From: Aureibacter tunicatorum
GTDB taxonomy: Bacteria; Bacteroidota; Bacteroidia; Cytophagales; Cyclobacteriaceae
DNA length: 64,000 nucleotides
Reading direction: 5' to 3'
NCBI RefSeq assembly: GCF_036492635.1
Contig: NZ_AP025305.1
Coordinates: 3,798,000-3,861,999, forward strand
Shown in pieces: positions 2,660 to 53,995 of the stretch. Under the pieces are notes generated by a model. That model made no database searches. It saw nothing but the letters and a program-made list of their open reading frames with translations, and was not told where the DNA came from. How positions within the stretch are numbered: position 1 is the first letter of the stretch; the number at the start of each line of letters is the position of its first letter. A program made the translations under genes and the position numbers.

Positions 2660-3619
2660 GTGGAGACAATAACATCAAATATAGTTCAATACGCCGAAAA
2701 GGTATTTGAAATAGAAGCAAAAGCAATCGCTGACTTGAAGAAGAATCTCACGGAGGATTTTGAAAAGGCAGTGAAGGAGATATTGGCCGGAGACGGCAAG
2801 CTGGTGATCTCAGGAATGGGAAAATCAGGAATCATCGGTAAGAAAATCGCCGCTACGCTGGCAAGCACAGGCACGCCGTCGTTTTTTATGCATCCCGGAG
2901 AAGCATTTCATGGAGACTTGGGCATGGTGACTCCTGAAGATGTTGTGATCGTGATTTCCAACTCAGGGGAAACGAATGAGATGTTGAACATCATTCCTTT
3001 CTTCAAGGACAATGGCAATACGCTTATCGCCATGACCGGCAATCCTGAGTCTACTTTAGCAAAAAATTCGAATTATCACCTGAATATAGCGGTGGAAGAA
3101 GAAGCTTGTCCGCTTTCATTGGCGCCAACGTCGTCTACTACGGCGACTTTGGTGATGGGAGATGCTTTGGCTGTTGCTTTGATGTATGAAAGAGGCTTCA
3201 AAGCGGAGAATTTTGCTAGATTCCACCCTGGAGGAAGTCTTGGAAAAAGATTGCTTACCAATGCTTCTACCTTGATGAAAAGTGAAAACTTGCCGATCAT
3301 CAGTAAAGAAGACAACACGAAGACGATTATCGCCAAGATTACAGAAGGCAGACTTGGTCTGGCTATTGTGATGCAGGAAGAATCTATCGCAGGAATTATC
3401 ACTGACGGAGACATTCGTCGCGCGATGGAATCCAAGGAAGAAAACTTCTTTCAGTTAACGGCTGAAGAGCTGATGACTCCAAATCCTAAAACGATTGCTT
3501 CTCAGGCTAAGATCGCTGAGGCTGAAGAACTGATGAATCATTATAAGATAAACTCTCTGTTAGTCGCTGAGGACAACAAGCTTCTAGGCGTATTGCAGAT
3601 TTATGATATTAACGTTTAA
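2660..3619 (+). CDS. kdsD: Arabinose-5-phosphate isomerase (KpsF/GutQ family; SIS plus tandem CBS domains)
   Basis: SIS motif 'VISGMGKSGIIGKKIAATLASTGTPSFF' and C-terminal CBS pair. Immediately precedes kdsB and kdsA. Confidence 0.85.
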   Translation: METITSNIVQYAEKVFEIEAKAIADLKKNLTEDFEKAVKEILAGDGKLVISGMGKSGIIGKKIAATLASTGTPSFFMHPGEAFHGDLGMVTPEDVVIVISNSGETNEMLNIIPFFKDNGNTLIAMTGNPESTLAKNSNYHLNIAVEEEACPLSLAPTSSTTATLVMGDALAVALMYERGFKAENFARFHPGGSLGKRLLTNASTLMKSENLPIISKEDNTKTIIAKITEGRLGLAIVMQEESIAGIITDGDIRRAMESKEENFFQLTAEELMTPNPKTIASQAKIAEAEELMNHYKINSLLVAEDNKLLGVLQIYDINV

Positions 3620-5602: not shown

Positions 5603-6133
5603 TTATAATCCTTCTTGAATTATTTTCAATGTTTCAATCGGATATTTTTCTTTGCGTCTGATAAGTTTTCGAACACTTGTTTTTTCATGCTCCTCTAACA
5701 GTACTATCACTTTTAGGTTTTGGCCATATTCATCATGCTCAAGGGCAACTTCCAAAAATATTTCTATTAGTGTATTAAAGTCCTTAAAGTTGTTAAAATA
5801 CATGTATTGGGCATCATGGAGTATAAAGAACTTATGTTGGGGTAAACCTTCGCCTCGAATAACATCTTTAACAGCATTCCAATTTATACCCATTTCGAAC
5901 CCCCAAGGAGTGGAATGACAAAGTTGATAGCAAAAGTCCTCAAAATTTACTGCCAATTTTCCATAAATGGGGCTGGTTTGTGAATTAGGCTGATGATTTA
6001 ACGCTTGAATTAATGTGGTTCCGAACCATTGTAAGTCAGATCGTTTCCCTGAACAAATTAAGTGATTTGACAATGCCAACTCAACACACTCTTTTACCCA
6101 ATCATTAGTATATACATTAATTGTTTTGCTCAT
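5603..6133 (-). CDS. Barstar-like (barnase-inhibitor family) immunity-type protein with an extra N-terminal domain
   Basis: C-terminal half 'TPWGFEMGINWNAVKDVIRGEGLPQHKFFILHDAQ' resembles the barstar 'PEYYGENLDALWDCLTG...PLVLEW' core. Assignment from memory, not searched. Confidence 0.4.
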   Translation of the reverse strand: MSKTINVYTNDWVKECVELALSNHLICSGKRSDLQWFGTTLIQALNHQPNSQTSPIYGKLAVNFEDFCYQLCHSTPWGFEMGINWNAVKDVIRGEGLPQHKFFILHDAQYMYFNNFKDFNTLIEIFLEVALEHDEYGQNLKVIVLLEEHEKTSVRKLIRRKEKYPIETLKIIQEGL

Positions 6134-28700: not shown

Positions 28701-29216
28701 CTAAAAAAACACTAATTGGCAATCAGGAAGAAGCTTAATCTGATCACAGCCGCCAATATATTTTGTGATTTTTTCAAATACTTTCCTTAATCTCTTCGCA
28801 TTAACTTCATTCGACTCTGAGTGAACTCTCCAATCAATAATAGACGTGTCATTTTTAAACCTATATTCAAGGTAATAATCAGTATGCGGAGTTATATATA
28901 ATGTAGTAGTCGGAGCATAACTATGTGGATACTTACAAATATCAATATCAACAAGATCTTGATAAATTTCTTTTTTAAAATCCAGACCAATGACGAAACT
29001 TATCGTGGTATCTTGATCCCAATCAAATTTATATGTTAAAGAATCGGTAAACGTATCAATCTTGTAAATTCCGAAATTAACTTCAGCCTTGAAGTCAAAT
29101 GTTACAGGCATTTCTTTGTCATAACGACAAGAAGAAACTTTTCGAATACATCCATGTAAAATAAATACAACAAATAACACACTTATAAATTTCATAAGAT
29201 TGCAACTCATCATCAT
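28701..29216 (-). CDS. Hypothetical lipoprotein
   Basis: Signal plus lipobox 'FILHGCIRK'. Start overlaps the upstream gene's stop by 4 nt. Confidence 0.5.
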   Translation of the reverse strand: MMMSCNLMKFISVLFVVFILHGCIRKVSSCRYDKEMPVTFDFKAEVNFGIYKIDTFTDSLTYKFDWDQDTTISFVIGLDFKKEIYQDLVDIDICKYPHSYAPTTTLYITPHTDYYLEYRFKNDTSIIDWRVHSESNEVNAKRLRKVFEKITKYIGGCDQIKLLPDCQLVFF

Positions 29217-30820
29217 ATCAAATACAACCTAACAGCTCTAAATTCCCTCTCTTCGTCTTCCAGATGATATTTAAACGTCGTCTTGGCATGCTGTATATGC
29301 ACTCCGCCGGGACGCATCGCGCAAACCACTGTCTTGTCATCTAACTCTTCCTCCTCTTGATCCCAATGGCTTCTAGGCTTCACATGTATGGCTCCCGTGC
29401 TTTCATCCACATGATCAAAGAAAATCGTCAATACATGAAGCTTTCTGTATTCTTCATCGGTAACATCTCTCCAGATAATCTCTTCCTCTTCCATACGGTC
29501 CGGTATCTGATGATGCTTTTGCCACTGGTGATGATCGTCTCTAAGAGCATTCTGATAGAACAAGGCTGCAATAATCTCTGTCGAATTCCCTAAACCAACA
29601 TCTATAAATCGTTGCAGATTATCATTGAACAAAATCGCCAGCGACTCTGGCCGGTCAATATGCAAAAGCACTGGCTTCTCCCATTCTACCCGACAGTTGA
29701 CAAATGTGCGAATTTGCTGGATTTCCTGTATGGTATAAAACTCGTCAATACTGGCATAACCTTTTCGCTGAACACGCTTGAAAGCTTCATTGATAACTTC
29801 TCCATTAATATTAAACTGGTAGTGCCTGTTGGCAAGCATCAATCGCTTCTGGATGCTCTTCTGCAATCTCGCCGGCCTTAAGACTTTTATCGCCTCTCCA
29901 AAACCCAATATCTCTTTTTCTAATTCATAGTTAAGTTGTAAATACATTGAAACTACAATTCCTCCAGGAAGATCTCGAACCTTCTTTTGCGAATGATGAA
30001 TTGGTTTGGTCAATACATAAGGAGCGTGTTTCTTTTCCACAAACAGTTCTATACGCTCAATCTTCGGCTCATATTCGACACTCACTCCGATCGCGTGTTT
30101 GAAGTAATCAACCAAATCCCAACGCGTATTGCCTATATAATCACATTCACTATTATCCAAATTGATAATCCTGTCAAATGCCAACAGCATGGGGTTTTGC
30201 TTTGCATTCTTGAACCCAAGCACAAACCAACGATTCCTGAACTCTTTCAATAACTGCGGATGAAAGTCAAAAGTGCTTTCCTCTCTGGCTTTGAATGATT
30301 TATAAGTCAGCTTTATGGATCTTTTATGCAATACAGATTCATACAAGGGTTCTAGATACTCCAAGCCCTTCAATTCATTATTGGTCTCAAACTGAATAAT
30401 CGGCATTTGATTATCTCGCTTGGACTGAACAGAATCTTCCAGCTTCTGTATCATGCCCGACAATTCTTGCACTTGCGTAAACCCTTTGAACTGCTTCAAT
30501 ATATCCACCGCATCGGATAGCTTGCGCAAATCCTGATCTGTCAGCGGAATATTTGTAATCGAATAATTCGGATCCTCATAAGTATAGTACTTTCTGTCTT
30601 TGACAATGATCGGAGCATTGTACCCCAGCTTGTCACTTCGCATCATCTGAATGTCAAGCTGTACTGTTCGTTTGCTCACTCCTTTGTCTATTCCTTCATA
30701 TTCGTACAATGCTTCCGAACAAGCTTCCACCAAGTCATCCAAGGTCCATTGCCTGAAGCGATTTTTCAAACATTGATCAATAGTCTTATAGCGCACTAGT
30801 GCGTTTCTATTTGCCGGCAT
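29213..30820 (-). CDS. HTH plus WYL domain regulator fused to a C-terminal PhyH-like Fe(II)/2-oxoglutarate dioxygenase domain
   Basis: N-terminal 'GVSKRTVQLDIQMMRSDKLGYNAPII' (HTH_11-like). WYL core 'IKLTYKSF...NRWFVLGF...MLLAFDRIINLD'. C-terminal 'FFDHVDESTGAIHVKPRSH...GGVHIQHAKTTF' resembles the PhyH 'NGxLxVIPGSH' region. Confidence 0.6.
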   Translation of the reverse strand: MPANRNALVRYKTIDQCLKNRFRQWTLDDLVEACSEALYEYEGIDKGVSKRTVQLDIQMMRSDKLGYNAPIIVKDRKYYTYEDPNYSITNIPLTDQDLRKLSDAVDILKQFKGFTQVQELSGMIQKLEDSVQSKRDNQMPIIQFETNNELKGLEYLEPLYESVLHKRSIKLTYKSFKAREESTFDFHPQLLKEFRNRWFVLGFKNAKQNPMLLAFDRIINLDNSECDYIGNTRWDLVDYFKHAIGVSVEYEPKIERIELFVEKKHAPYVLTKPIHHSQKKVRDLPGGIVVSMYLQLNYELEKEILGFGEAIKVLRPARLQKSIQKRLMLANRHYQFNINGEVINEAFKRVQRKGYASIDEFYTIQEIQQIRTFVNCRVEWEKPVLLHIDRPESLAILFNDNLQRFIDVGLGNSTEIIAALFYQNALRDDHHQWQKHHQIPDRMEEEEIIWRDVTDEEYRKLHVLTIFFDHVDESTGAIHVKPRSHWDQEEEELDDKTVVCAMRPGGVHIQHAKTTFKYHLEDEEREFRAVRLYLI

Positions 30821-30905
30821 AAATATTTTTTTTACAAAAAATCAGCTCTGAGACATGAATGAAAGCTGTTTAAAATGAAAATTTAAAGAAATTACATATT
30901 TTTTT

Positions 30906-30950
30906 TTACTGCGCAAAAAGATTGCGCATTGGCTTTTCAACTTTGTAATG
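30906..30950 (+). promoter_or_regulatory. Palindrome-containing promoter/operator motif, copy A (upstream of the tRNA-like RNA locus)
   Basis: ttactGCGCAAaaagaTTGCGCAtt...ctttgtaa. About 85% identical to 35210..35250. Confidence 0.55.
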
Positions 30951-31034
30951 AATCAAGGAAACAATCGGATGTTTCTGTACAGCATCAAGGAATCCGCCGG
31001 TAGGTTAGGATTTTCCTGATTGTGGAAGTTGGTT

Positions 31035-31215
31035 CTCTGGCTTAGCAGGTCGGAGGTTCGAATCCTCCCTTTGACTTATGGTCAAGGTAGTTCAGCAGGT
31101 TAGAACAGCTAAATTTATAGTCGTGTGGGTTCAAATCCCACCTCCTCTCGAAGGAGTGGTGGAATTGGTAGACACCTCAAATTGCAAATTTGATGACTCG
31201 GAAGTCTATGACTTC
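31035..31215 (+). ncRNA. Structured RNA built from tRNA-like modules in permuted order (tRNA-mimic / Y-RNA-like, or permuted tRNA halves)
   Basis: T-arm-acceptor hairpin-D-arm order repeated twice, followed by a type-II-like anticodon arm. Elements detailed in the first finding. Confidence 0.45.
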
Positions 31216-31450
31216 AATTTATTGACCTAAAGAACAAGGCTTTGCATTATCGGCTTTAAGCAAACGGCTCAAAGCAATTTTTAATTCGTCAGAAAATAGC
31301 GGATACCGTCTAAAGAAATTTTATTCTCTTTTGATTCGATTCATACAGACAATAAAATGAGCTTTTTTCTTAAGCCTTTTTCCATGAATTGAAAATGATA
31401 ATGCACCGTTTTGTTCTTTTTAATGTGTAACAACATAATACTTATATAAA

Positions 31451-32551
31451 ATGAAACCAATAAAAATCAATGAAGGAAACATAGGAATGATCTTCAAAAG
31501 TGGAGATTTCAATAAACTTTTGAAAGCAGGAAAGCACTGGATTAGCTTTAATGATTCAGTGGAAATCCATAATATGGCGAAGCCTTTCCAAAGCGACATT
31601 CCTCTAAATGTATTGCTAAAGCATGACGATTTCAAAAACGCTATAGAAGTAATTGAAGTCAATGACGACCAACTTGTTCTTCGATATGAAGACGGTGCCT
31701 TCAGCGAAGTATTGAGAGCTGGAAAATACGCATATTGGAAAGGTATTGCCAACCATTCATTTCAATATTGTGATTTGAAAGAAGCTAGAGTTCCAGCCGA
31801 GATCAGCTTGAACGTATTAAAAACCATGGCATTAAAGCTTTTGACTAAAGAAATTGAAATTCAACCCTTTGAAAAGGCATTGCTTTACATTGATGGAAAA
31901 TTGGATTCAGAATTAAAACAAGGAGCTCATTATTTTTGGTCTAACAGCAAAAATATTCAAATCCAACGCATAGATACCAGAACTCAAACATTGGAGATTT
32001 CAGGACAAGAGATTTTGACACAAGACAAGGTAAATCTGAGGATTAACTTTTCGGCGCAATATCAAGTATATGATATTTATCTTGCGAGAGAAAAGACCAA
32101 GGAATTTGAAACTCAATTATATCAAATGTTTCAGCTTGCTCTGAGAGAATATGTCGGTACCTTGCCTTTGGACGAACTATTGGCAAAAAAAGAATCGGTC
32201 TCTGAATTTATCATCAACCATCTTTCTGCGAAGACCAAAGAAATCGGCGTAAGAATTCTTGATTGCGGAGTAAGAGATCTGATATTGCCGGGAGAAGTAA
32301 AGGAAATAATGAATCAGGTGTTGATCGCTCAGAAAAAAGCTCAAGCGAATATCATCACCCGAAGAGAAGAAACAGCATCCACTAGAAGCTTGCTCAACAC
32401 CGCCAAGCTAATGGAAGACAACCCGATGCTATTCAAGCTCAAAGAAATGGAATACGTGGAAAAAATCTCTGAGAAAATCAGCGAAATTACACTATCCAAC
32501 GGAGGCCAGATCATCGACCAGCTTAGAGGAATGTTTGGCACTGCAAAGTAA
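31451..32551 (+). CDS. SPFH/band-7 (stomatin/prohibitin/flotillin/HflKC) domain protein
   Basis: 'ILTQDKVNLRINFSAQYQVYD...LREYVGTLPLDELLAKKES...IGVRILDCGVRDLILPGEV' band-7 core. Confidence 0.65.
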   Translation: MKPIKINEGNIGMIFKSGDFNKLLKAGKHWISFNDSVEIHNMAKPFQSDIPLNVLLKHDDFKNAIEVIEVNDDQLVLRYEDGAFSEVLRAGKYAYWKGIANHSFQYCDLKEARVPAEISLNVLKTMALKLLTKEIEIQPFEKALLYIDGKLDSELKQGAHYFWSNSKNIQIQRIDTRTQTLEISGQEILTQDKVNLRINFSAQYQVYDIYLAREKTKEFETQLYQMFQLALREYVGTLPLDELLAKKESVSEFIINHLSAKTKEIGVRILDCGVRDLILPGEVKEIMNQVLIAQKKAQANIITRREETASTRSLLNTAKLMEDNPMLFKLKEMEYVEKISEKISEITLSNGGQIIDQLRGMFGTAK

Positions 32552-32593: not shown

Positions 32594-33217
32594 TTGCCTT
32601 TGAATATAGAAACAACACTCAACATAGACCATAACCTTAAGGAAATGATCTTCAGCACTGCTGTTGGAGATCTTTCCTTCACCTACTTTGAGCATTGGCT
32701 GCTTAACCAAAGCCAATACCACAACCTTATTGCTGAGGATTTATTTTTCTTGAATCTTTACAGCATGGATTACCAAGACAAAGGAATTCAAGAAGAATTT
32801 GAAAAGACTATTCTAGAACACCTTGACCAAAATGAATTTGAATTATTCAAAATCAAACACATACTCAATAAAATCACTGAAGATGAAAGTCAGATAGAAC
32901 GTTTGCTTCAAGTTTGCTTGGATTGGAAAAATAACGATATGGAATGGATCAAACGATTTGGGTATCATTTATATGATTTTAGCGAATATGAATTCTATGG
33001 GTATTCGAAAAAAGAATTAATCAATAAGATTCAACGAGAAGCAAAAGATTTGCTCTCCGCATTGCAAGACGATAACCACATTCATAAAAACATAGAATTT
33101 CGGCCGAATCGATTCACTACAATTCGTCCAAAAAGTATAAAAATCAAAATCCTCAACCGGAGAAGAAAAAGAAGAAAATCAGTATTAGAGAGACTAAGAA
33201 ACATGTTAAATAGATGA
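32594..33217 (+). CDS. Hypothetical protein with strongly basic C-terminal tail (KILNRRRKRRKSVLERLRNMLNR)
   Basis: 207-aa ORF following the SPFH gene. No recognised domain. Confidence 0.45.
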   Translation: MPLNIETTLNIDHNLKEMIFSTAVGDLSFTYFEHWLLNQSQYHNLIAEDLFFLNLYSMDYQDKGIQEEFEKTILEHLDQNEFELFKIKHILNKITEDESQIERLLQVCLDWKNNDMEWIKRFGYHLYDFSEYEFYGYSKKELINKIQREAKDLLSALQDDNHIHKNIEFRPNRFTTIRPKSIKIKILNRRRKRRKSVLERLRNMLNR

Positions 33218-33223
33218 TATTTA

Positions 33224-34297
33224 TTAATTATTTTGATAAAAATATGGGTAAATTATTTTTTCCCATGTTTTTCCTCCGTCTTTTGTCATCATTAAAACAT
33301 TTCCTGAATTCACAATTCCTATTTCTTTGTTAATAAAAGATACGTTTAAAATATTTTGCAAATAAAAAAAATGCTCCCATGTTGCCCCGGAATCATTAGA
33401 AATGTAAATATCATTCGCAGCATAAGCCATTAAATAGTTAGAATCTAATTGAATTACTTTGCTTATATTCTTTCCATCAATGATTTTAATATTTATTTCT
33501 TCAAATTCATTTCCAACCTTTCTATATATTGCAGCCCCATCTGTTAAAAACAATTGTTCTCCATCGCTATTCACAAAAATAATCTCTCTTTTTTCAGGAT
33601 TAGCAAATAAACTCTGTTCCCATGTTCTTCCAAAATCTAGAGAATAATAAATAGTATTATCCTCTTCAAAACTACTATGACTTTTATTAATCAAGCTTAT
33701 ATAAATAGCGCCTGATGAGTTTGCATGAACATCAATTCCCAAATGATTCTCAAAATAATTTATTAATCTCTTTTCTTTTTTAACAAAATCATATTCATAA
33801 ATTCTACTGTCCTCTTTATTCTCACTAACAAGCAAATAAACTCTATCTTTTACAAGTTTGTAAGACTTGAGACTTTCTCCTACATTTAAACGAAACTCTA
33901 TATCCTCCCAACTATCACCTCCATCTACAGTGTAAATAAAGCTAAGGTATTTAGTTTTATAGTTTTGATTAATTAGAAAAAAAGCATATTCCTCATCCAT
34001 ATAAATTAATGGATAATCATTAAGTATAATTTCATCGTCCAAAGTTTGTGTGTCAAAACTTTCAAACCAATTATTAGTGGTAAAGAAATATCCATTTGCA
34101 TACCCATAAATTATTGAATCATTAGTTAATCGAGCGTAAAGATCTTGACCTTCTGTTAACAATTCAATTTCTGGATTAATAGTAACTGTTTCATACAAAG
34201 AATTTACTTTATCAAAAACTAAATCTTCTGAATCTCCACATGAGCAACATAACAAACATAAAAAAACAACAATATTTAAATTAATACCTCTATGCAT
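33224..34297 (-). CDS. Secreted BNR/Asp-box repeat protein
   Basis: Signal peptide. Four S-x-D-x-G-x-T-W boxes ('TVDGGDSWE', 'SLDFGRTWE', 'SNDSGATWE', 'TKDGGKTWE'). Confidence 0.65.
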   Translation of the reverse strand: MHRGINLNIVVFLCLLCCSCGDSEDLVFDKVNSLYETVTINPEIELLTEGQDLYARLTNDSIIYGYANGYFFTTNNWFESFDTQTLDDEIILNDYPLIYMDEEYAFFLINQNYKTKYLSFIYTVDGGDSWEDIEFRLNVGESLKSYKLVKDRVYLLVSENKEDSRIYEYDFVKKEKRLINYFENHLGIDVHANSSGAIYISLINKSHSSFEEDNTIYYSLDFGRTWEQSLFANPEKREIIFVNSDGEQLFLTDGAAIYRKVGNEFEEINIKIIDGKNISKVIQLDSNYLMAYAANDIYISNDSGATWEHFFYLQNILNVSFINKEIGIVNSGNVLMMTKDGGKTWEKIIYPYFYQNN

Positions 34298-34316
34298 TTA
34301 TCCTCTTTTAAGTGCT

Positions 34317-35051
34317 TCAATTATTGTATCTCGCATCATTTTTTATAATTGGCGGTCTTTTTTTAATAGGCGAAGAATATCCTAAAGTCAAAGAAATATT
34401 ATCTATATTATACCTTACTTTACTCTTCTCTTCATATACTTGCCTATGTTCCAAATTATAAATAGCATCATAATCTATTTCTAAATATGGTCGAAAAATC
34501 TCATAATTAACTTTCAAAAATAAACGACCATATCTCACTTTCACACCTGATACCATTGAAAGTCCCATACCATCCAAAAGGTGTTTCGACTTCGCTGTTT
34601 TTTTACCAGTTATTCCAATAGTTTTCAATTCATCAGAATAATAGGTATAGGTAAAATAATTTTTCACATAATTATGCTTTAATGATAATGTTGGTCGTAT
34701 TTCAAATGAGTTTCTTTTAAAAATATTATAGCTCATTTCTGCTCCTAAATTCCAATGAGTCAATACCTCATAAAGAGTCCCTGAGCTTCTTGTATAAATT
34801 GAATTAACTTTCTTTGAAGATCTTTTTATTCCGAACTCTGGTTTAATGAACAACTTCCTTTTCAATACATTTATATCCAATCCAACTGTGCCATTAAATG
34901 CCAAATTCATAGACTGATTTATATCCTTATGTTGTGGAAGAGAAATACCAAAATCAGCTTCAAAACTCTGATTCACCTCTTGAGCATATACATTTTCACA
35001 AAAACTAAACAATAATACAATACAAAGTATTGTCATTTTTATTAATCTCAT
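34317..35051 (-). CDS. Outer-membrane beta-barrel (porin-family) protein
   Basis: Signal 'MRLIKMTILCIVLLFSFCENVYAQ' with beta-strand periodicity. Similar class to 8450..9076. Confidence 0.5.
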   Translation of the reverse strand: MRLIKMTILCIVLLFSFCENVYAQEVNQSFEADFGISLPQHKDINQSMNLAFNGTVGLDINVLKRKLFIKPEFGIKRSSKKVNSIYTRSSGTLYEVLTHWNLGAEMSYNIFKRNSFEIRPTLSLKHNYVKNYFTYTYYSDELKTIGITGKKTAKSKHLLDGMGLSMVSGVKVRYGRLFLKVNYEIFRPYLEIDYDAIYNLEHRQVYEEKSKVRYNIDNISLTLGYSSPIKKRPPIIKNDARYNN

Positions 35052-35274: not shown

Positions 35275-36435
35275 ATGAAAAAAGTAATCAGCACGGAAAA
35301 ACGGCCAATCAAACTTTGGCTGGATGATATAGAAAACGGCGCCTTAGAGCAAGCCAAAAACCTTGCGAACCTTCCCTTTGCATTCAAACATATTCCATTG
35401 ATGCCGGACAGTCATCAAGGCTATGGCATGCCTATAGGCTCGGTATTAGCGACCAAGGAAGTAGTAGTGCCCAATGCTGTCGGCGTTGATATCGGTTGCG
35501 GGATGTGCGCATTGCCAACGAGCCTTAAAAATATAGAAAAAGACAATCTTAAAGCGATCTTGGGTGAAGCTCGTAAACGAATTCCTGTTGGAATGAATTG
35601 GCATAAAGAATCTCAAGGAGAAGAGCGAATGCCAGAAGGAGCTGACAGCTTGGAAATCGTCTCGCAAGGCTACAACAAAGCTTTGAAGCAAATCGGAACT
35701 TTGGGAGGAGGCAACCATTTTGTGGAAATCCAGCAAGGCTCTGACGGACATATTTGGCTGATGATTCACTCTGGAAGCCGTAACCTTGGCGCTAAAGTAG
35801 CAGACCATTATAACAAGCTGGCAAAGCGTCTGAATGAAAGGTACTTTTCAGTAGTGGACAAGAAAACGGATTTGGCATTTTTACCCATTGAAACTCCCGA
35901 AGCCAAAAACTATCTTAAAGAAATGAACTATTGCATCGAGTTTGCGCTTGCCAATAGAAAATTAATGATGGAGCGTCTAGTAGAAGCTATGCAAGCTGTC
36001 TTGGGAGAATTTGAAACAGGAGAAATGATCAATAAATCGCACAATCTGGCGACTTGGGAAAACCATTTTGGCGAAAATGTGCTCGTGCATCGTAAAGGAG
36101 CAACTCCTGCCTTTGAGGGCGAACTAGGCATGATACCAGGATCCCAGGGGACGAGTTCATATATCGTCAAAGGATTGGGAAATCCTGAAAGTTTCAAATC
36201 TTGTTCTCACGGTGCAGGAAGAAAGCTGGGCAGAAAGCAAGCTCAGCGTACTTTGGATCTGAAAGAAGAAATTCAATACCTGAATGACAAAGGCATCGTA
36301 CATGCCGTAAGAAACAAAAGCGATCTTGACGAGGCGGTAAGCGCCTACAAAAACATCGACGAAGTCATGGAAAATCAAAAGGACCTTGCCGAAATTGTTG
36401 TACAACTTTCGCCATTAGCTGTATTGAAGGGATAA
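35275..36435 (+). CDS. rtcB: RNA-splicing ligase RtcB (3'-phosphate/5'-OH RNA ligase)
   Basis: 'MPDSHQGYGMPIGSVL', 'VGVDIGCGMC', 'GGGNHFVEIQ', 'SHGAGR' RtcB metal- and GMP-binding motifs. Confidence 0.85.
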   Translation: MKKVISTEKRPIKLWLDDIENGALEQAKNLANLPFAFKHIPLMPDSHQGYGMPIGSVLATKEVVVPNAVGVDIGCGMCALPTSLKNIEKDNLKAILGEARKRIPVGMNWHKESQGEERMPEGADSLEIVSQGYNKALKQIGTLGGGNHFVEIQQGSDGHIWLMIHSGSRNLGAKVADHYNKLAKRLNERYFSVVDKKTDLAFLPIETPEAKNYLKEMNYCIEFALANRKLMMERLVEAMQAVLGEFETGEMINKSHNLATWENHFGENVLVHRKGATPAFEGELGMIPGSQGTSSYIVKGLGNPESFKSCSHGAGRKLGRKQAQRTLDLKEEIQYLNDKGIVHAVRNKSDLDEAVSAYKNIDEVMENQKDLAEIVVQLSPLAVLKG

Positions 36436-50515: not shown

Positions 50516-50582
50516 ACAGAGTATATTATACCTAAAATATATTATGCAAATATTTGCCTAATGTAAAAAAAGCGTTACATTT

Positions 50583-50680
50583 GCGTAGCGATTCGGGACT
50601 ACCAGCTCCTTATGAACTCCCCCAGGGCCGGAAGGCAGCAAGGGTAGTAAGTTGTAGCGGTGAGATCTTGAATCGCTACT
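50583..50680 (+). ncRNA. ffs: Signal recognition particle RNA (small/4.5S type), copy 1
   Basis: Domain-IV signature 'cccccagggccggaaggcagcaagggtag'. Closing helix gtagcgattc/gaatcgctac. Preceded by TAcaTTTG (-7-like box), followed by a T-run. Confidence 0.7.
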
Positions 50681-50791
50681 TTTATTTATAGCCATTTAGA
50701 ATTAACACGCCTCTCTTCTCTAAATCGGTTTTTCGACTTATATTTACTCCACAACCGAAACCGACACCACACAGCAACCGAATTCCACTGA

Positions 50792-51445: not shown

Positions 51446-51483
51446 TAAAAGTGTTTGCAATTACAATTAATTCAACTATATTT

Positions 51484-51577
51484 GCATCGCAATTCGGGAC
51501 TACTAGCTCCTTATGAACTCCCCCAGGGCCGGAAGGCAGCAAGGGTAGTAAGTCGTAGCAGTGAGATCTTGGATTGC
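51484..51577 (+). ncRNA. ffs: Signal recognition particle RNA (small/4.5S type), copy 2 (diverged paralogue)
   Basis: Same domain-IV core. Closing helix gcaattc/ggattgc with compensatory changes relative to copy 1. Preceded by TAtaTTTG, followed by TTTTTTT. Confidence 0.65.
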
Positions 51578-51686
51578 TTTTTTTATGCTCAAATTTTATT
51601 ACCCCCCAGTCCCTTTCAACACTCAATATCAAACAATAGATAGATCTAGAGGTTTAAGTTTAAGATTCTTTCTTTTCCCTCAAACC

Positions 51687-52772
51687 ATGTACGACACCCC
51701 TTATTTTTCACCTCTTAGTAGAAAAACAAAGAACACTCCAACAACAAATCCGCATAAAATCCCACAACCACGCATTATTCAAAGAGCATTAATTGATTGG
51801 GCCCAAATATCAACCATCATCAAACCATCACAAGGTCTCAGCTCACATGTATTTTTCGTTAAATTAAATGACAAACAAGAATATGTCCTTAAGTTTCCTT
51901 TTGAAAACTCTGTAGGAGAAAACGAAAGAATGGCCTCTAGCTTTATTGCGAAAAACACCAACTCCCTACTTAGTCCAAGAACACGGTTAATATCCATGCA
52001 AAGCACCGAAGTAGAACAACTGGAAGCAGGAATCAAAAGACATTCAACACCAGCAGCCAGAGAACTTTTAGATGTCTTGCTATCCCACCCTACCGGAGAG
52101 TTCATCTGCATGGAAAAAATGAGCGGACGATCTCTAGATTTCATGGAATCCACTTCTGACAGAAAACTTCTTGCAGACCCATCCTTTCAGTCTAGATTAG
52201 GGGAAGTATTAGCATTCGACTTATTAATGGGAAATATCGACAGGCTACTCTTACTAAACCCAGACAATCTTATTTACGACTTAAAAAAAAGAAGCCTCAG
52301 CCTTATAGACCAAAAAGTATCTATATACGACCTATCAGGAGTAATACCTCATGGAGCGATGGATACAGAAGTCTTGAACACTCCCCACGCCAGTGAAGAC
52401 GAAAAAATGGAAGCAATGCTTCAAGTAAACGCTCATCTAAAAGAATATCTCGAAATACAACTAGCCCCGCTAAAAAATGGCGAATTCGGCAAAAGCAGCA
52501 TATCCGAGAAACTAGCTTTCATGTTTGAAACTCAATATCAAGCCAGAATCGACAGAAGATTGATTGATATCGGCTTATACGAAGGTCTACTAAAAATCGC
52601 GCAAAACTTTCATTGGGCTGGAGCTGAAGCCATGACAGAATGGAGTAAAACAGGAGTTGAAGGCATGGGACTTTTTCACAATTGGCTCACCGTATCCGAT
52701 CTACTGCCTGACGCTCAACAAAGCCTGGCCTCCTTGGAAAAAAACCGAAAAAGACTACTTAAAAAAAGGTAA
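51687..52772 (+). CDS. Hypothetical protein with possible atypical-kinase-like motif
   Basis: Start moved to the first ATG outside the SRP RNA ('MYDTPYFSPL...'). 'FDLLMGNIDRLLLLNPDN' resembles a D-x-x-x-x-N-x-D-R catalytic loop. Weak. Confidence 0.4.
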   Translation: MYDTPYFSPLSRKTKNTPTTNPHKIPQPRIIQRALIDWAQISTIIKPSQGLSSHVFFVKLNDKQEYVLKFPFENSVGENERMASSFIAKNTNSLLSPRTRLISMQSTEVEQLEAGIKRHSTPAARELLDVLLSHPTGEFICMEKMSGRSLDFMESTSDRKLLADPSFQSRLGEVLAFDLLMGNIDRLLLLNPDNLIYDLKKRSLSLIDQKVSIYDLSGVIPHGAMDTEVLNTPHASEDEKMEAMLQVNAHLKEYLEIQLAPLKNGEFGKSSISEKLAFMFETQYQARIDRRLIDIGLYEGLLKIAQNFHWAGAEAMTEWSKTGVEGMGLFHNWLTVSDLLPDAQQSLASLEKNRKRLLKKR

Positions 52773-52842
52773 TCCATATTAATCAAAAACAAAAAAGCGA
52801 AACGCAATAATACGTTTCGCTTAAAATCAAAAGAAAATCTCG

Positions 52843-52915
52843 AGCGGGTGATCAGGTTCGAACTGACGACTTACAGCTTGGAAGGCTGTCGCTCTACCAA
52901 CTGAGCTACACCCGC
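52843..52915 (-). tRNA. tRNA-Gly (anticodon UCC)
   Basis: Reverse complement folds as GCGGGTG-TA-GCTCAGTTGGTAGAGC-G-ACAGC-CTTCCAA-GCTGT-AAGTC-GTCAGTTCGAACCTGAT-CACCCGC-T. Confidence 0.9.
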
Positions 52916-52952
52916 AATAAAAGAGTAACAACCGACAAATATCGGAAAATAG

Positions 52953-53025
52953 AGCGGGTGATCAGGTTCGAACTGACGACTTACAGCTTGGAAGGCTGTC
53001 GCTCTACCAACTGAGCTACACCCGC
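52953..53025 (-). tRNA. tRNA-Gly (anticodon UCC)
   Basis: Identical copy of 52843..52915. Confidence 0.9.
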
Positions 53026-53041
53026 GATTTTCAATTCTATG

Positions 53042-53124
53042 TGGGGAGAGCAGGATTCGAACCTGCGAAGTCGAAAGACAACGGATTTACAGTCCGTCCC
53101 AGTTGGCCGCTTTGGTATCTCCCC
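53042..53124 (-). tRNA. tRNA-Tyr (anticodon GUA), type II with long variable arm
   Basis: Reverse complement GGGGAGA-TA-CCAAAGCGGCCAACTGGG-...-CTGTAAA-...-GCAGGTTCGAATCCTGC-TCTCCCC-A. Confidence 0.85.
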
Positions 53125-53169
53125 AACTAAATATTTTAAATTTATTCAAACCTATTATTTGAATACTGG

Positions 53170-53242
53170 AGCGGGTGATCAGGTTCGAACTGACGACTTA
53201 CAGCTTGGAAGGCTGTCGCTCTACCAACTGAGCTACACCCGC
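53170..53242 (-). tRNA. tRNA-Gly (anticodon UCC)
   Basis: Identical repeat copy. Confidence 0.9.
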
Positions 53243-53258
53243 GATTTTCAATTCTATG

Positions 53259-53341
53259 TGGGGAGAGCAGGATTCGAACCTGCGAAGTCGAAAGACAACG
53301 GATTTACAGTCCGTCCCAGTTGGCCGCTTTGGTATCTCCCC
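53259..53341 (-). tRNA. tRNA-Tyr (anticodon GUA)
   Basis: Identical repeat copy. Confidence 0.85.
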
Positions 53342-53387
53342 AACTAAATATTTTAAAATTTATTCAAACCTATTATTTGAATGCTGG

Positions 53388-53460
53388 AGCGGGTGATCAG
53401 GTTCGAACTGACGACTTACAGCTTGGAAGGCTGTCGCTCTACCAACTGAGCTACACCCGC
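53388..53460 (-). tRNA. tRNA-Gly (anticodon UCC)
   Basis: Identical repeat copy. Confidence 0.9.
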
Positions 53461-53476
53461 GATTTTCAATTCTATG

Positions 53477-53559
53477 TGGGGAGAGCAGGATTCGAACCTG
53501 CGAAGTCGAAAGACAACGGATTTACAGTCCGTCCCAGTTGGCCGCTTTGGTATCTCCCC
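53477..53559 (-). tRNA. tRNA-Tyr (anticodon GUA)
   Basis: Identical repeat copy. Confidence 0.85.
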
Positions 53560-53605
53560 AACTAAATATTTTAAAATTTATTCAAACCTATTATTTGAAT
53601 GCTGG

Positions 53606-53678
53606 AGCGGGTGATCAGGTTCGAACTGACGACTTACAGCTTGGAAGGCTGTCGCTCTACCAACTGAGCTACACCCGC
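53606..53678 (-). tRNA. tRNA-Gly (anticodon UCC)
   Basis: Identical repeat copy. Confidence 0.9.
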
Positions 53679-53694
53679 GATTTTCAATTCTATG

Positions 53695-53777
53695 TGGGGA
53701 GAGCAGGATTCGAACCTGCGAAGTCGAAAGACAACGGATTTACAGTCCGTCCCAGTTGGCCGCTTTGGTATCTCCCC
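53695..53777 (-). tRNA. tRNA-Tyr (anticodon GUA)
   Basis: Identical repeat copy. Confidence 0.85.
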
Positions 53778-53823
53778 AACTAAATATTTTAAAATTTATT
53801 CAAATCTATTATTTGAATGCTGG

Positions 53824-53896
53824 AGCGGGTGATCAGGTTCGAACTGACGACTTACAGCTTGGAAGGCTGTCGCTCTACCAACTGAGCTACACCCGC
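53824..53896 (-). tRNA. tRNA-Gly (anticodon UCC)
   Basis: Identical repeat copy. Confidence 0.9.
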
Positions 53897-53912
53897 GATT
53901 TTCAATTCTGTG

Positions 53913-53995
53913 TGGGGAGAGCAGGATTCGAACCTGCGAAGTCGAAAGACAACGGATTTACAGTCCGTCCCAGTTGGCCGCTTTGGTATCTCCCC
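53913..53995 (-). tRNA. tRNA-Tyr (anticodon GUA)
   Basis: Repeat copy with a single substitution in the flank. Confidence 0.85.

Follow-up and report, generated by a model that had tools for sequence, protein, structure and literature searches.

This study examined a 64,000-nt stretch of the Aureibacter tunicatorum genome (contig NZ_AP025305.1, positions 3,798,000 to 3,861,999 of the forward strand), hereafter the window, to whose numbering all coordinates refer unless a numbered locus (L) is named. Within it, an intergenic region of 630 nt (30821-31450) separates a divergent gene for a WYL+WCX protein from a gene for a soluble SPFH/Band-7 protein, and a gene for an RtcB-family RNA ligase lies further downstream. 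The plus strand of this region carries, at 31042-31193, two modules composed of the parts of transfer RNA (tRNA) in permuted order. An original prediction, made from the sequence itself, had drawn attention to tRNA-like modules in a box at 30990-31240, and we observed that the conserved element extends beyond that box. Our data make it likely that the region holds a conserved structured RNA core with two tRNA-shaped modules, situated between the divergent WYL gene and a Band-7 gene that heads an RtcB RNA-repair operon. The locus represents neither a genuine tRNA gene nor the debris of one, and its best reading is a YrlA-like tRNA mimic that serves as cofactor, decoy or leader of the Band-7/RtcB RNA-repair system.

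Architecture of the two modules

The first module, a YrlA-type tRNA-like unit at 31042-31112 on the plus strand, was recognized through a partial YrlA match, through our own covariance model (R1) and through covariation. Its closing stem is formed by two perfect partners, TTAGC (31042-31046) and GCTAA (31108-31112). Between TTAGC and the first T arm (GGAGG-TTCGAAT-CCTCC, 31052-31068) lies a 5-nt variable loop, AGGTC (31047-31051), and behind this arm follows an acceptor hairpin made of CTTTGAC (31069-31075), the loop TTATG and GTCAAGG (31081-31087), with one G-U pair. T31088 and A31089 take the places of U8 and A9, and the D arm, GTTC-AGCAGGTTA-GAAC (31090-31106), is followed by A31107 as the equivalent of A26. 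Module 1 is opened at the anticodon stem, in the same manner as YrlA's tRNA-like domain.

A 12-nt linker (31113-31124) leads to the second module (31125-31193, plus strand; supported by R1 and covariation), and the last linker base, T31124, corresponds to tRNA position 48 of that module. Its T arm (GTGGG-TTCAAAT-CCCAC, 31125-31141) is succeeded by an acceptor hairpin of CTCCT, the loop CTCGA and AGGAG (31142-31156), then by T31157 and G31158, a tRNA-Leu-like D arm (GTG-GAATTGGTAGA-CAC, 31159-31175), C31176 and an anticodon-like arm, TCAAA-TTGCAAA-TTTGA (31177-31193). Module 2 corresponds to a tRNA whose opening falls between variable region and T arm, with the complete anticodon-like stem-loop retained. 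Both modules appear circularly permuted because the acceptor stem is closed by a loop.

Every element that the original prediction had listed is present where it was placed, including the two T arms and two D arms, both loop-closed acceptor hairpins with their 5-nt loops, and the perfect TTAGC/GCTAA pairing with TTAGC on the 5' side of the first T arm. It had also held that no ordinary cloverleaf forms here, and ARAGORN indeed called 11 tRNAs in the window and none at this locus. The T-loop motif GGTTCRANTCC occurred seven times in the 64 kb, five times in tRNA-Tyr genes and twice at the locus, against 0.14 expected from shuffles. When the two halves of module 1 were joined head to tail as proposed, ARAGORN called the 74-nt product a tRNA-Gln(CTG); however, the heptamer CUCUGGC, taken for its anticodon loop (CUG), belongs to the upstream linker and varies freely in relatives. 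For module 2, the anticodon arm with the triplet GCA was borne out, and the un-permuted construct was called tRNA-Cys(GCA), but the variable arm that had been assigned to it was not, as the hairpin concerned (31201-31215) occupies the place of a pseudoknot in relatives. The minimum free energy fold of the single sequence 30985-31245 recovered the tRNA-like helices in part (z = -1.2) and was uninformative.

Conservation and covariation in Bacteroidota

For the comparative analysis, 80 Bacteroidota loci were collected through alignment of Band-7 homologues. Two perfect T arms, 57-92 nt apart and approximately 350-700 nt 5' of the Band-7 start, were observed in 58 of the 80 loci in addition to the window, with stems that vary in sequence, and ARAGORN called no tRNA at these twin-T-arm sites of the relatives. 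From 54 sequences aligned with MAFFT alone, RNAalifold recovered six of the eight helices, namely the closing stem, T arm 1, acceptor hairpin 1, D arm 1, T arm 2 and the anticodon-like stem, with compensatory changes in 24 of 28 pairs. The covariance model R1 was built from a 17-sequence seed of 134 loop-trimmed columns and comprises eight helices with 36 pairs. Full-length, same-strand R1 matches of at least 45 bits were found 5' of the Band-7 gene in 68 of the 80 loci, covering several Bacteroidota orders. The window itself scored 83.1 bits (E=2e-19, 31042-31193), and genuine tandem tRNA arrays reached only 25-43 bits.

The 58 best matches were aligned with R1 and showed standard pairs in 98.1% of the pair cells, as compared with 69.3% after shuffling and 41-56% when the partners were slid against each other. 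Changes on both sides were recorded for 32 of the 36 pairs, and the covariation score of 0.835 (vs 0.254) was reached by none of 500 shuffles. All four helices of module 1 covary, and those of module 2 (T arm, acceptor hairpin, D arm and anticodon-like arm) were paired in 96-100% of cases with compensatory changes present. The Levitt pair 15-48 was likewise maintained, being G-C or A-U in 55 of the 58 sequences for module 1 (permutation mean 31.1) and in 45 of 58 for module 2, where the base immediately preceding T arm 2 serves as position 48 (permutation mean 24.3); in neither case did any of 10000 permutations score as high. U8 and A14 never vary in module 1 and hardly vary in module 2. The fold of both modules is supported by secondary and tertiary covariation, and the unit is conserved across Bacteroidota at a fixed position and strand 5' of the Band-7/RtcB(/RlaP) genes.

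The loop of the module 2 anticodon-like arm has 7 nt in 50 of the 58 sequences, with Y32, U33 and R37 conserved. Its triplet is variable, and 26 different triplets were counted across these 50 orthologous loops, which argues that the module has no decoding identity. Un-permuted constructs from relatives were accepted by ARAGORN as tRNAs for 50 of 52 units of module 1 and 36 of 39 of module 2, and their 'anticodons' were scattered. The number of modules is not strictly fixed, since Fulvitalea axinellae (L081, 5334-5555) has three, namely a tandem duplicate of module 1 followed by module 2, and three T arms were also noticed at L011, L023, L057, L059 and L063.

With reference to known RNA families, the best permissive Rfam match in 30800-31450 was YrlA (RF02553), at 31044-31112 with 34 bits (E=1.3e-5). 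It covers model positions 23-87 of 114, that is, the tRNA-like domain with its closing stem, T arm, loop-closed acceptor and D arm. In four relatives the same model gave 30-42 bits, on module 1 and in one instance on module 2. The Rfam scan suggested in the original prediction gave this partial match on module 1, but nothing at the locus in the window at gathering thresholds; in the loci of 10 relatives, only the tRNA model passed these thresholds, and YrlA did not. The tRNA matches are chimeric and span D arm 1 through T arm 2, with 27 bits in the window and 29-39 bits, above gathering, in relatives (L016 6449-6512, L064 6424-6486, L065 2840-2900, and others). Annotation pipelines may report spurious pseudo-tRNAs at twin-module loci. 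The Pedo-repair RNA motif (RF01715), considered as a lead, had no match in the window or in a Pedobacter locus and was dropped.

The surrounding non-coding region and the neighbouring genes

Conserved sequence continues on both sides of the modules. An inverted repeat, TGCGCAA-AAAGA-TTGCGCA (30910-30928, plus strand), seen in the sequence and flagged as a hairpin by a pattern scan, is followed by CAACTTTG (30938-30945, plus strand), a block conserved in Fulvitalea axinellae. Judging from these motifs, 30910-30945 is a candidate region for an operator of the WYL regulator and/or for a Bacteroidota-type -33/-7 promoter of the RNA, the promoter assignment being based on the Bacteroidota consensus TTG / TAnnTTTG. 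Other palindromes, for example GTGCTTTCAGCAC and GTACGAAAGTAC, stand at the equivalent position in relatives. A 5' domain then precedes module 1 on the plus strand and consists of two hairpins, H1 (about 30967-30986) and H2 (about 30989-31016); H1 has the conserved loop UCUGUAC/U, nearly invariant in the form UCUGUAU. Both were predicted by RNAalifold from 52 related sequences, with 12 of 14 pairs compensatory.

On the 3' side of module 2, the window has a hairpin, GAAGTC-TAT-GACTTC (31201-31215, plus strand), followed by AATTTATT; it is terminator-like in this genome only and is absent in Fulvitalea. Most relatives have at this place the arrangement GAAG-loop-CTTC-UAAAAA followed by the complement of the loop, which amounts to an H-type pseudoknot; a loop complement of at least 5 nt was present in 58% of cases, compared with 19% with shuffled tails. 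Further downstream, the conserved block GGATACCG (31301-31308, plus strand) stands 107 nt after module 2, and roughly half of the 58 sequences have it or a near variant approximately 100-160 nt (mostly 98-140) 3' of module 2. MAFFT with RNAalifold yielded no consensus structure for the 3' region around this block. A second block, TTCCG[TC], lies about 75-110 nt before the Band-7 start in relatives, and its equivalent in the window is overlapped by a 10-codon upstream open reading frame (ORF; ATGAGCTTTTTTCTTAAGCCTTTTTCCATGAATTGA, 31357-31389). Simple terminator-like sites between module 2 and the Band-7 start were detected in 14 of the 58 loci and never at a conserved position. As such sites are scarce and not conserved, the RNA in most genomes is probably made as, or from, the long leader of the operon.

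The divergent gene (29213-30820, minus strand) encodes a 535-residue protein with WYL (Pfam, 1.6e-10; PADLOC, 1.3e-19) and WCX (Pfam, 7.2e-07) domains, and these domains suggest a putative ligand-sensing transcription regulator of the system. A divergent WYL homologue 5' of the RNA was noted in 40 of the 80 loci, and in Fulvitalea. The first gene 3' of the RNA (31451-32551, plus strand) encodes the 366-residue SPFH/Band-7 protein (Pfam Band_7, 1.4e-31), which is 100% identical to the Aureibacter tunicatorum 'slipin family protein', and inspection of its translation revealed no N-terminal hydrophobic segment. It is followed by a gene for a 207-residue protein, p207 (32594-33217, plus strand), with a counterpart of 212 residues at the same position in Fulvitalea. 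Pfam, NCBIfam and PADLOC gave no match for p207 or for a 171-residue neighbour. Two unrelated genes on the minus strand (33224-35051) encode a BNR/sortilin-repeat protein and a putative outer-membrane beta-barrel protein of 244 residues. The RtcB-family RNA ligase (386 residues; 35275-36435, plus strand; NCBIfam RtcB family models at 3e-86 and 3.4e-59) lies 4 kb downstream of the RNA on the same strand, in line with the rtcB neighbourhood that the original prediction associated with RNAs of this kind, and no RlaP gene follows it in this window.

Of the 80 loci, 58 carry an RtcB homologue no more than 7 kb from the Band-7 gene. The order in Fulvitalea axinellae, the closest relative, is WYL (minus strand), RNA, Band-7, the 212-residue protein, RtcB and two RlaP genes, and that in Pedobacter caeni is RNA, Band-7, two RlaP genes and RtcB. 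In the window's neighbourhood, PADLOC recognized the WYL protein alone.

Interpretation and relation to known tRNA mimics

The general idea of a tRNA mimic beside Band-7 and RtcB genes is already in the literature. According to the account that Wang et al. 2018 (10.1101/312249) give of Burroughs & Aravind 2016, RtcB is found in some bacteria beside a Band-7 protein and a predicted tRNA-like RNA (b7a-tRNA), and the part of the same source that treats YrlA states that this RNA occasionally adjoins a Band-7 gene. The mentions that we found of b7a-tRNA, or of SPFH proteins with RtcB, were secondary ones, together with an SPFH protein in the rtc locus of P. aeruginosa (PMC13086221). The RNA described here extends the class of YrlA/b7a-tRNA-type tRNA mimics, which were predicted earlier and have been little studied. 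It is distinguished by its two or three modules, by a second module that bears an anticodon arm, and by its embedding in a longer multi-domain RNA absent from Rfam.

With YrlA, the RNA has in common the permuted order of module 1 (from the closing stem through the 5-nt variable loop, T arm, loop-closed acceptor, U8/A9 and D arm back to the closing stem) and the neighbourhood of the RNA-repair gene RtcB. In contrast to the single tRNA-like module of YrlA, two or three are present here, the second keeps its anticodon arm, the modules sit inside a longer conserved RNA (a two-hairpin 5' domain and, in relatives, a 3' pseudoknot), and the partner is a Band-7/SPFH gene and not an adjacent rsr (Ro60/TROVE) gene. 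The proposal of a YrlA-like structured RNA, which the original prediction had offered as one of two readings, accordingly holds for the tRNA-like architecture, the link to rtcB and the covariation, but not for membership: the twin-module RNA has a YrlA-like design and is not YrlA by Rfam score, Ro-binding stem or Rsr linkage.

The likeness to b7a-tRNA lies in the position next to a Band-7 gene in an RtcB neighbourhood, both in the window and in relatives. The difference is that b7a-tRNA, as far as it is described in 10.1101/312249, strongly resembles an authentic tRNA, whereas here the cloverleaf is non-contiguous and the modules are permuted. Several relatives also carry ordinary-looking tRNAs at this place. 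A tRNA-Tyr(GTA) stands directly 5' of the 5' domain at L009, L035, L027, L039, L040, L044 and L054, and at L019 and L024 a tRNA-Tyr alone is found about 30 nt before the Band-7 gene, in place of the twin-module RNA; a tRNA-Tyr beside or in place of this RNA, such as that at L019 and L024, may correspond to b7a-tRNA. Whole tRNA arrays lie just 5' of the RNA in some Flavobacteriia (L047 5075-6005; L058 3382-5148).

Circularly permuted tRNA genes, in which the 3' half precedes the 5' half and the acceptor strands are adjacent, occur in Cyanidioschyzon merolae, some other algae and archaea, and they give decoding tRNAs with conserved identity via a circular intermediate and a bulge-helix-bulge endonuclease. 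Their likeness to the present locus is evident in the order of the halves, which can be re-joined to a cloverleaf, and genuine genes of this kind were the other reading of the original prediction. The transcript would be cut and its ends joined, for example by RtcB, a tRNA-splicing-type ligase that is indeed encoded nearby, and the acceptor loop would be opened by RNase P and RNase Z. ARAGORN accepts the un-permuted constructs of both window modules and of nearly all those from relatives. We nevertheless regard this explanation as very unlikely: the order is permuted, yet neither anticodon nor identity is conserved, module 1 lacks an anticodon loop, since the supposed 7-nt loop is the freely varying linker upstream, module 2 of the window combines a tRNA-Leu-like D arm and a GCA triplet with the lack of a long variable arm, and the module number is two or three among close relatives. 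Bacteria are not known to have a bulge-helix-bulge splicing system. A precedent for opening the acceptor loop does exist in M. smegmatis YrlA, where RNase P cuts in that loop and CCA is added by the CCA-adding enzyme (Chen et al. 2014, PMC4201824). The remaining alternative, decayed tandem tRNA genes or partial tRNA 3' halves left at integrase attachment sites, is hardly credible. The tRNA arrays in the window, and those just 5' of the RNA in some relatives, could be taken in its favour, as tRNA 3' halves are typical leftovers of mobile elements at such sites. On the other hand, relatives do not carry intact tandem tRNA genes at this locus, the large majority of loci preserve the two-module arrangement at a constant position relative to the same genes, every helix and the tertiary pair show compensatory changes, and no integrase was seen among the adjacent ORFs, so that conservation and covariation rule out attachment-site or tRNA debris.

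A different proposal, compatible with a conserved tRNA mimic, is that the twin mimics lie in a long structured 5' leader and regulate the Band-7/RtcB mRNA in cis, either as an operator bound by an operon protein or as a bait whose cleavage by an anticodon nuclease alters expression or yields a ligand for the WYL protein. The E. coli thrS operator, which mimics a tRNA arm, is a precedent for such a leader. The RNA is always located 5' of the operon on the same strand, conserved blocks begin about 100 nt ahead of module 1 and extend nearly to the Band-7 start, terminator-like sites ahead of Band-7 are few and scattered, and the module 2 loop bears the canonical anticodon-loop signature of Y32, U33 and R37; moreover, RtcR senses tRNA fragments (PMC7790460). 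Against this, the window has its terminator-like hairpin directly 3' of module 2, neither an anti-terminator nor a sequestering helix could be identified, no consensus fold was obtained for the 3' domain, and the Salmonella yrlA gene also resides inside the operon and yet its RNA is a stable component of a ribonucleoprotein (RNP; 10.1101/312249, PMC7790460). We consider a cis-acting role of this kind a serious alternative, on balance doubtful.

With a YrlA-like tRNA mimic as the preferred reading, the RNA would be co-transcribed with the operon or made just ahead of it, and both modules would fold into L-shaped tRNA mimics that act as protein-binding handles or baits and not as decoders. The mimics may tether the tRNA-recognising proteins RtcB and RlaP to an oligomeric Band-7 scaffold, much as Y RNA links Ro60 to an effector, or they may compete with, or bait, anticodon nucleases, and the WYL protein would control expression upon RNA damage. 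Both the Ro60-Y RNA RNP and the vault RNP (MVP/TEP1/vault RNA) combine an oligomeric ring or cage protein with a small structured RNA as tether or gate, and SPFH-like and TROVE modules are alternative partners of RNA-repair ligases, an analogy drawn in the comparative-genomics literature. The pairing of a Band-7 protein with a tRNA-mimic RNA resembles these particles by analogy only, as it is known here from the genes. For the partners, RlaP repairs trimmed tRNA halves by re-adding nucleotides (PMC12776372), and for YrlA a role as competitive inhibitor of an anticodon nuclease has been suggested (PMC7790460).

Several points weigh against this interpretation. The YrlA score is about half of the gathering score of 69, and the model positions that form the Ro60/Rsr-binding helix (1-22 and 88-114) are unmatched in the window, where the closing stem of module 1 has 5 bp and is flanked by the 5' domain and the linker to module 2. 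The search for an Ro60/Rsr (TROVE) gene, also suggested in the original prediction, found none among the neighbours or the scanned window ORFs of at least 380 residues. As the window has neither Rsr nor a Ro-binding stem, the analogy to Y RNA is an architectural one. The 3' pseudoknot of the relatives is missing in this genome, and the two minus-strand genes part Band-7 and p207 from RtcB, although the operon is contiguous in Fulvitalea and other relatives. The R1 alignment was fitted to its own model, though the MAFFT/RNAalifold result is independent of R1. The transcript and its ends are predicted from the sequence, and binding of Band-7, RtcB or RlaP to members of the family is predicted by analogy. 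In addition, part of the twin-module family may already have been catalogued by Burroughs & Aravind 2016, b7a-tRNA being compared here by its description.

A bolder extension, which we rate as improbable, is that the twin mimics serve the leader of the repair operon as built-in bait and sensor, forming a self-resetting sensor of RNA damage. An invading anticodon nuclease would cut the module 2 anticodon-like loop as it does in tRNAs, sparing the real ones, and would release fragments with 2',3'-cyclic phosphates. These fragments, directly or through the WYL regulator, might switch on Band-7, RtcB and RlaP, and RtcB would then reseal the bait. The decoy would in this case sit in a multi-domain RNA of approximately 0.4-0.6 kb that has no Rfam family.

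The prediction or discovery of tRNA mimics beside RNA-repair ligases, such as YrlA with Ro60 and b7a-tRNA with Band-7, dates back a decade. The family described here is widespread in Bacteroidota, including the culturable and genetically tractable genera Flavobacterium, Pedobacter and Chitinophaga, and offers a well-defined object for asking whether such RNAs tether proteins to SPFH scaffolds, act as ribotoxin decoys or regulate the operon. It also accounts for spurious weak 'tRNA' calls at such loci, and the seed alignment supplied represents an RNA family missing from Rfam.

A viral member of this exact family was sought by scanning IMG/VR for two close T loops, and the scan returned mostly tight phage tRNA arrays; the R1 scores there were no higher than 53 bits and overlap those of tRNA arrays, so that none can be claimed as a member. 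Units of the module 2 type that ARAGORN did not call, with T arm, loop-closed acceptor, D arm and anticodon arm, were noticed on the IMG/VR contigs L149 (10032-11222), L102 (about 5724-5800) and L158 (about 3260-3340), and L149 has at least four T arms directly beside an RtcB homologue. In Flavobacterium sp. PS2 (L058, 12490-12609), an RNA of 117-120 nt located 3' of the Band-7 locus matched the tRNA model with 48.5 bits and the transfer-messenger RNA model weakly, with 33.6 bits at a relaxed threshold (gathering score 47); it is possibly a tRNA-like RNA that contains an intron or is atypical in another way.

Elsewhere in the window, two matches to the Bacteroidales small signal recognition particle RNA were recorded on the plus strand at 50579-50682 and 51480-51583, with 72.9 and 62.7 bits and about 900 nt apart; two copies so close together are unusual, and the second overlaps the start of a 403-residue ORF (51561-52772). 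The 11 tRNAs called by ARAGORN form one array on the minus strand (52842-53995), in which six copies of tRNA-Gly(TCC) alternate with five of tRNA-Tyr(GTA) in repeats of about 218 nt. This tRNA-Tyr(GTA) is of the same tRNA type as that found beside the twin-module RNA in several other genomes.

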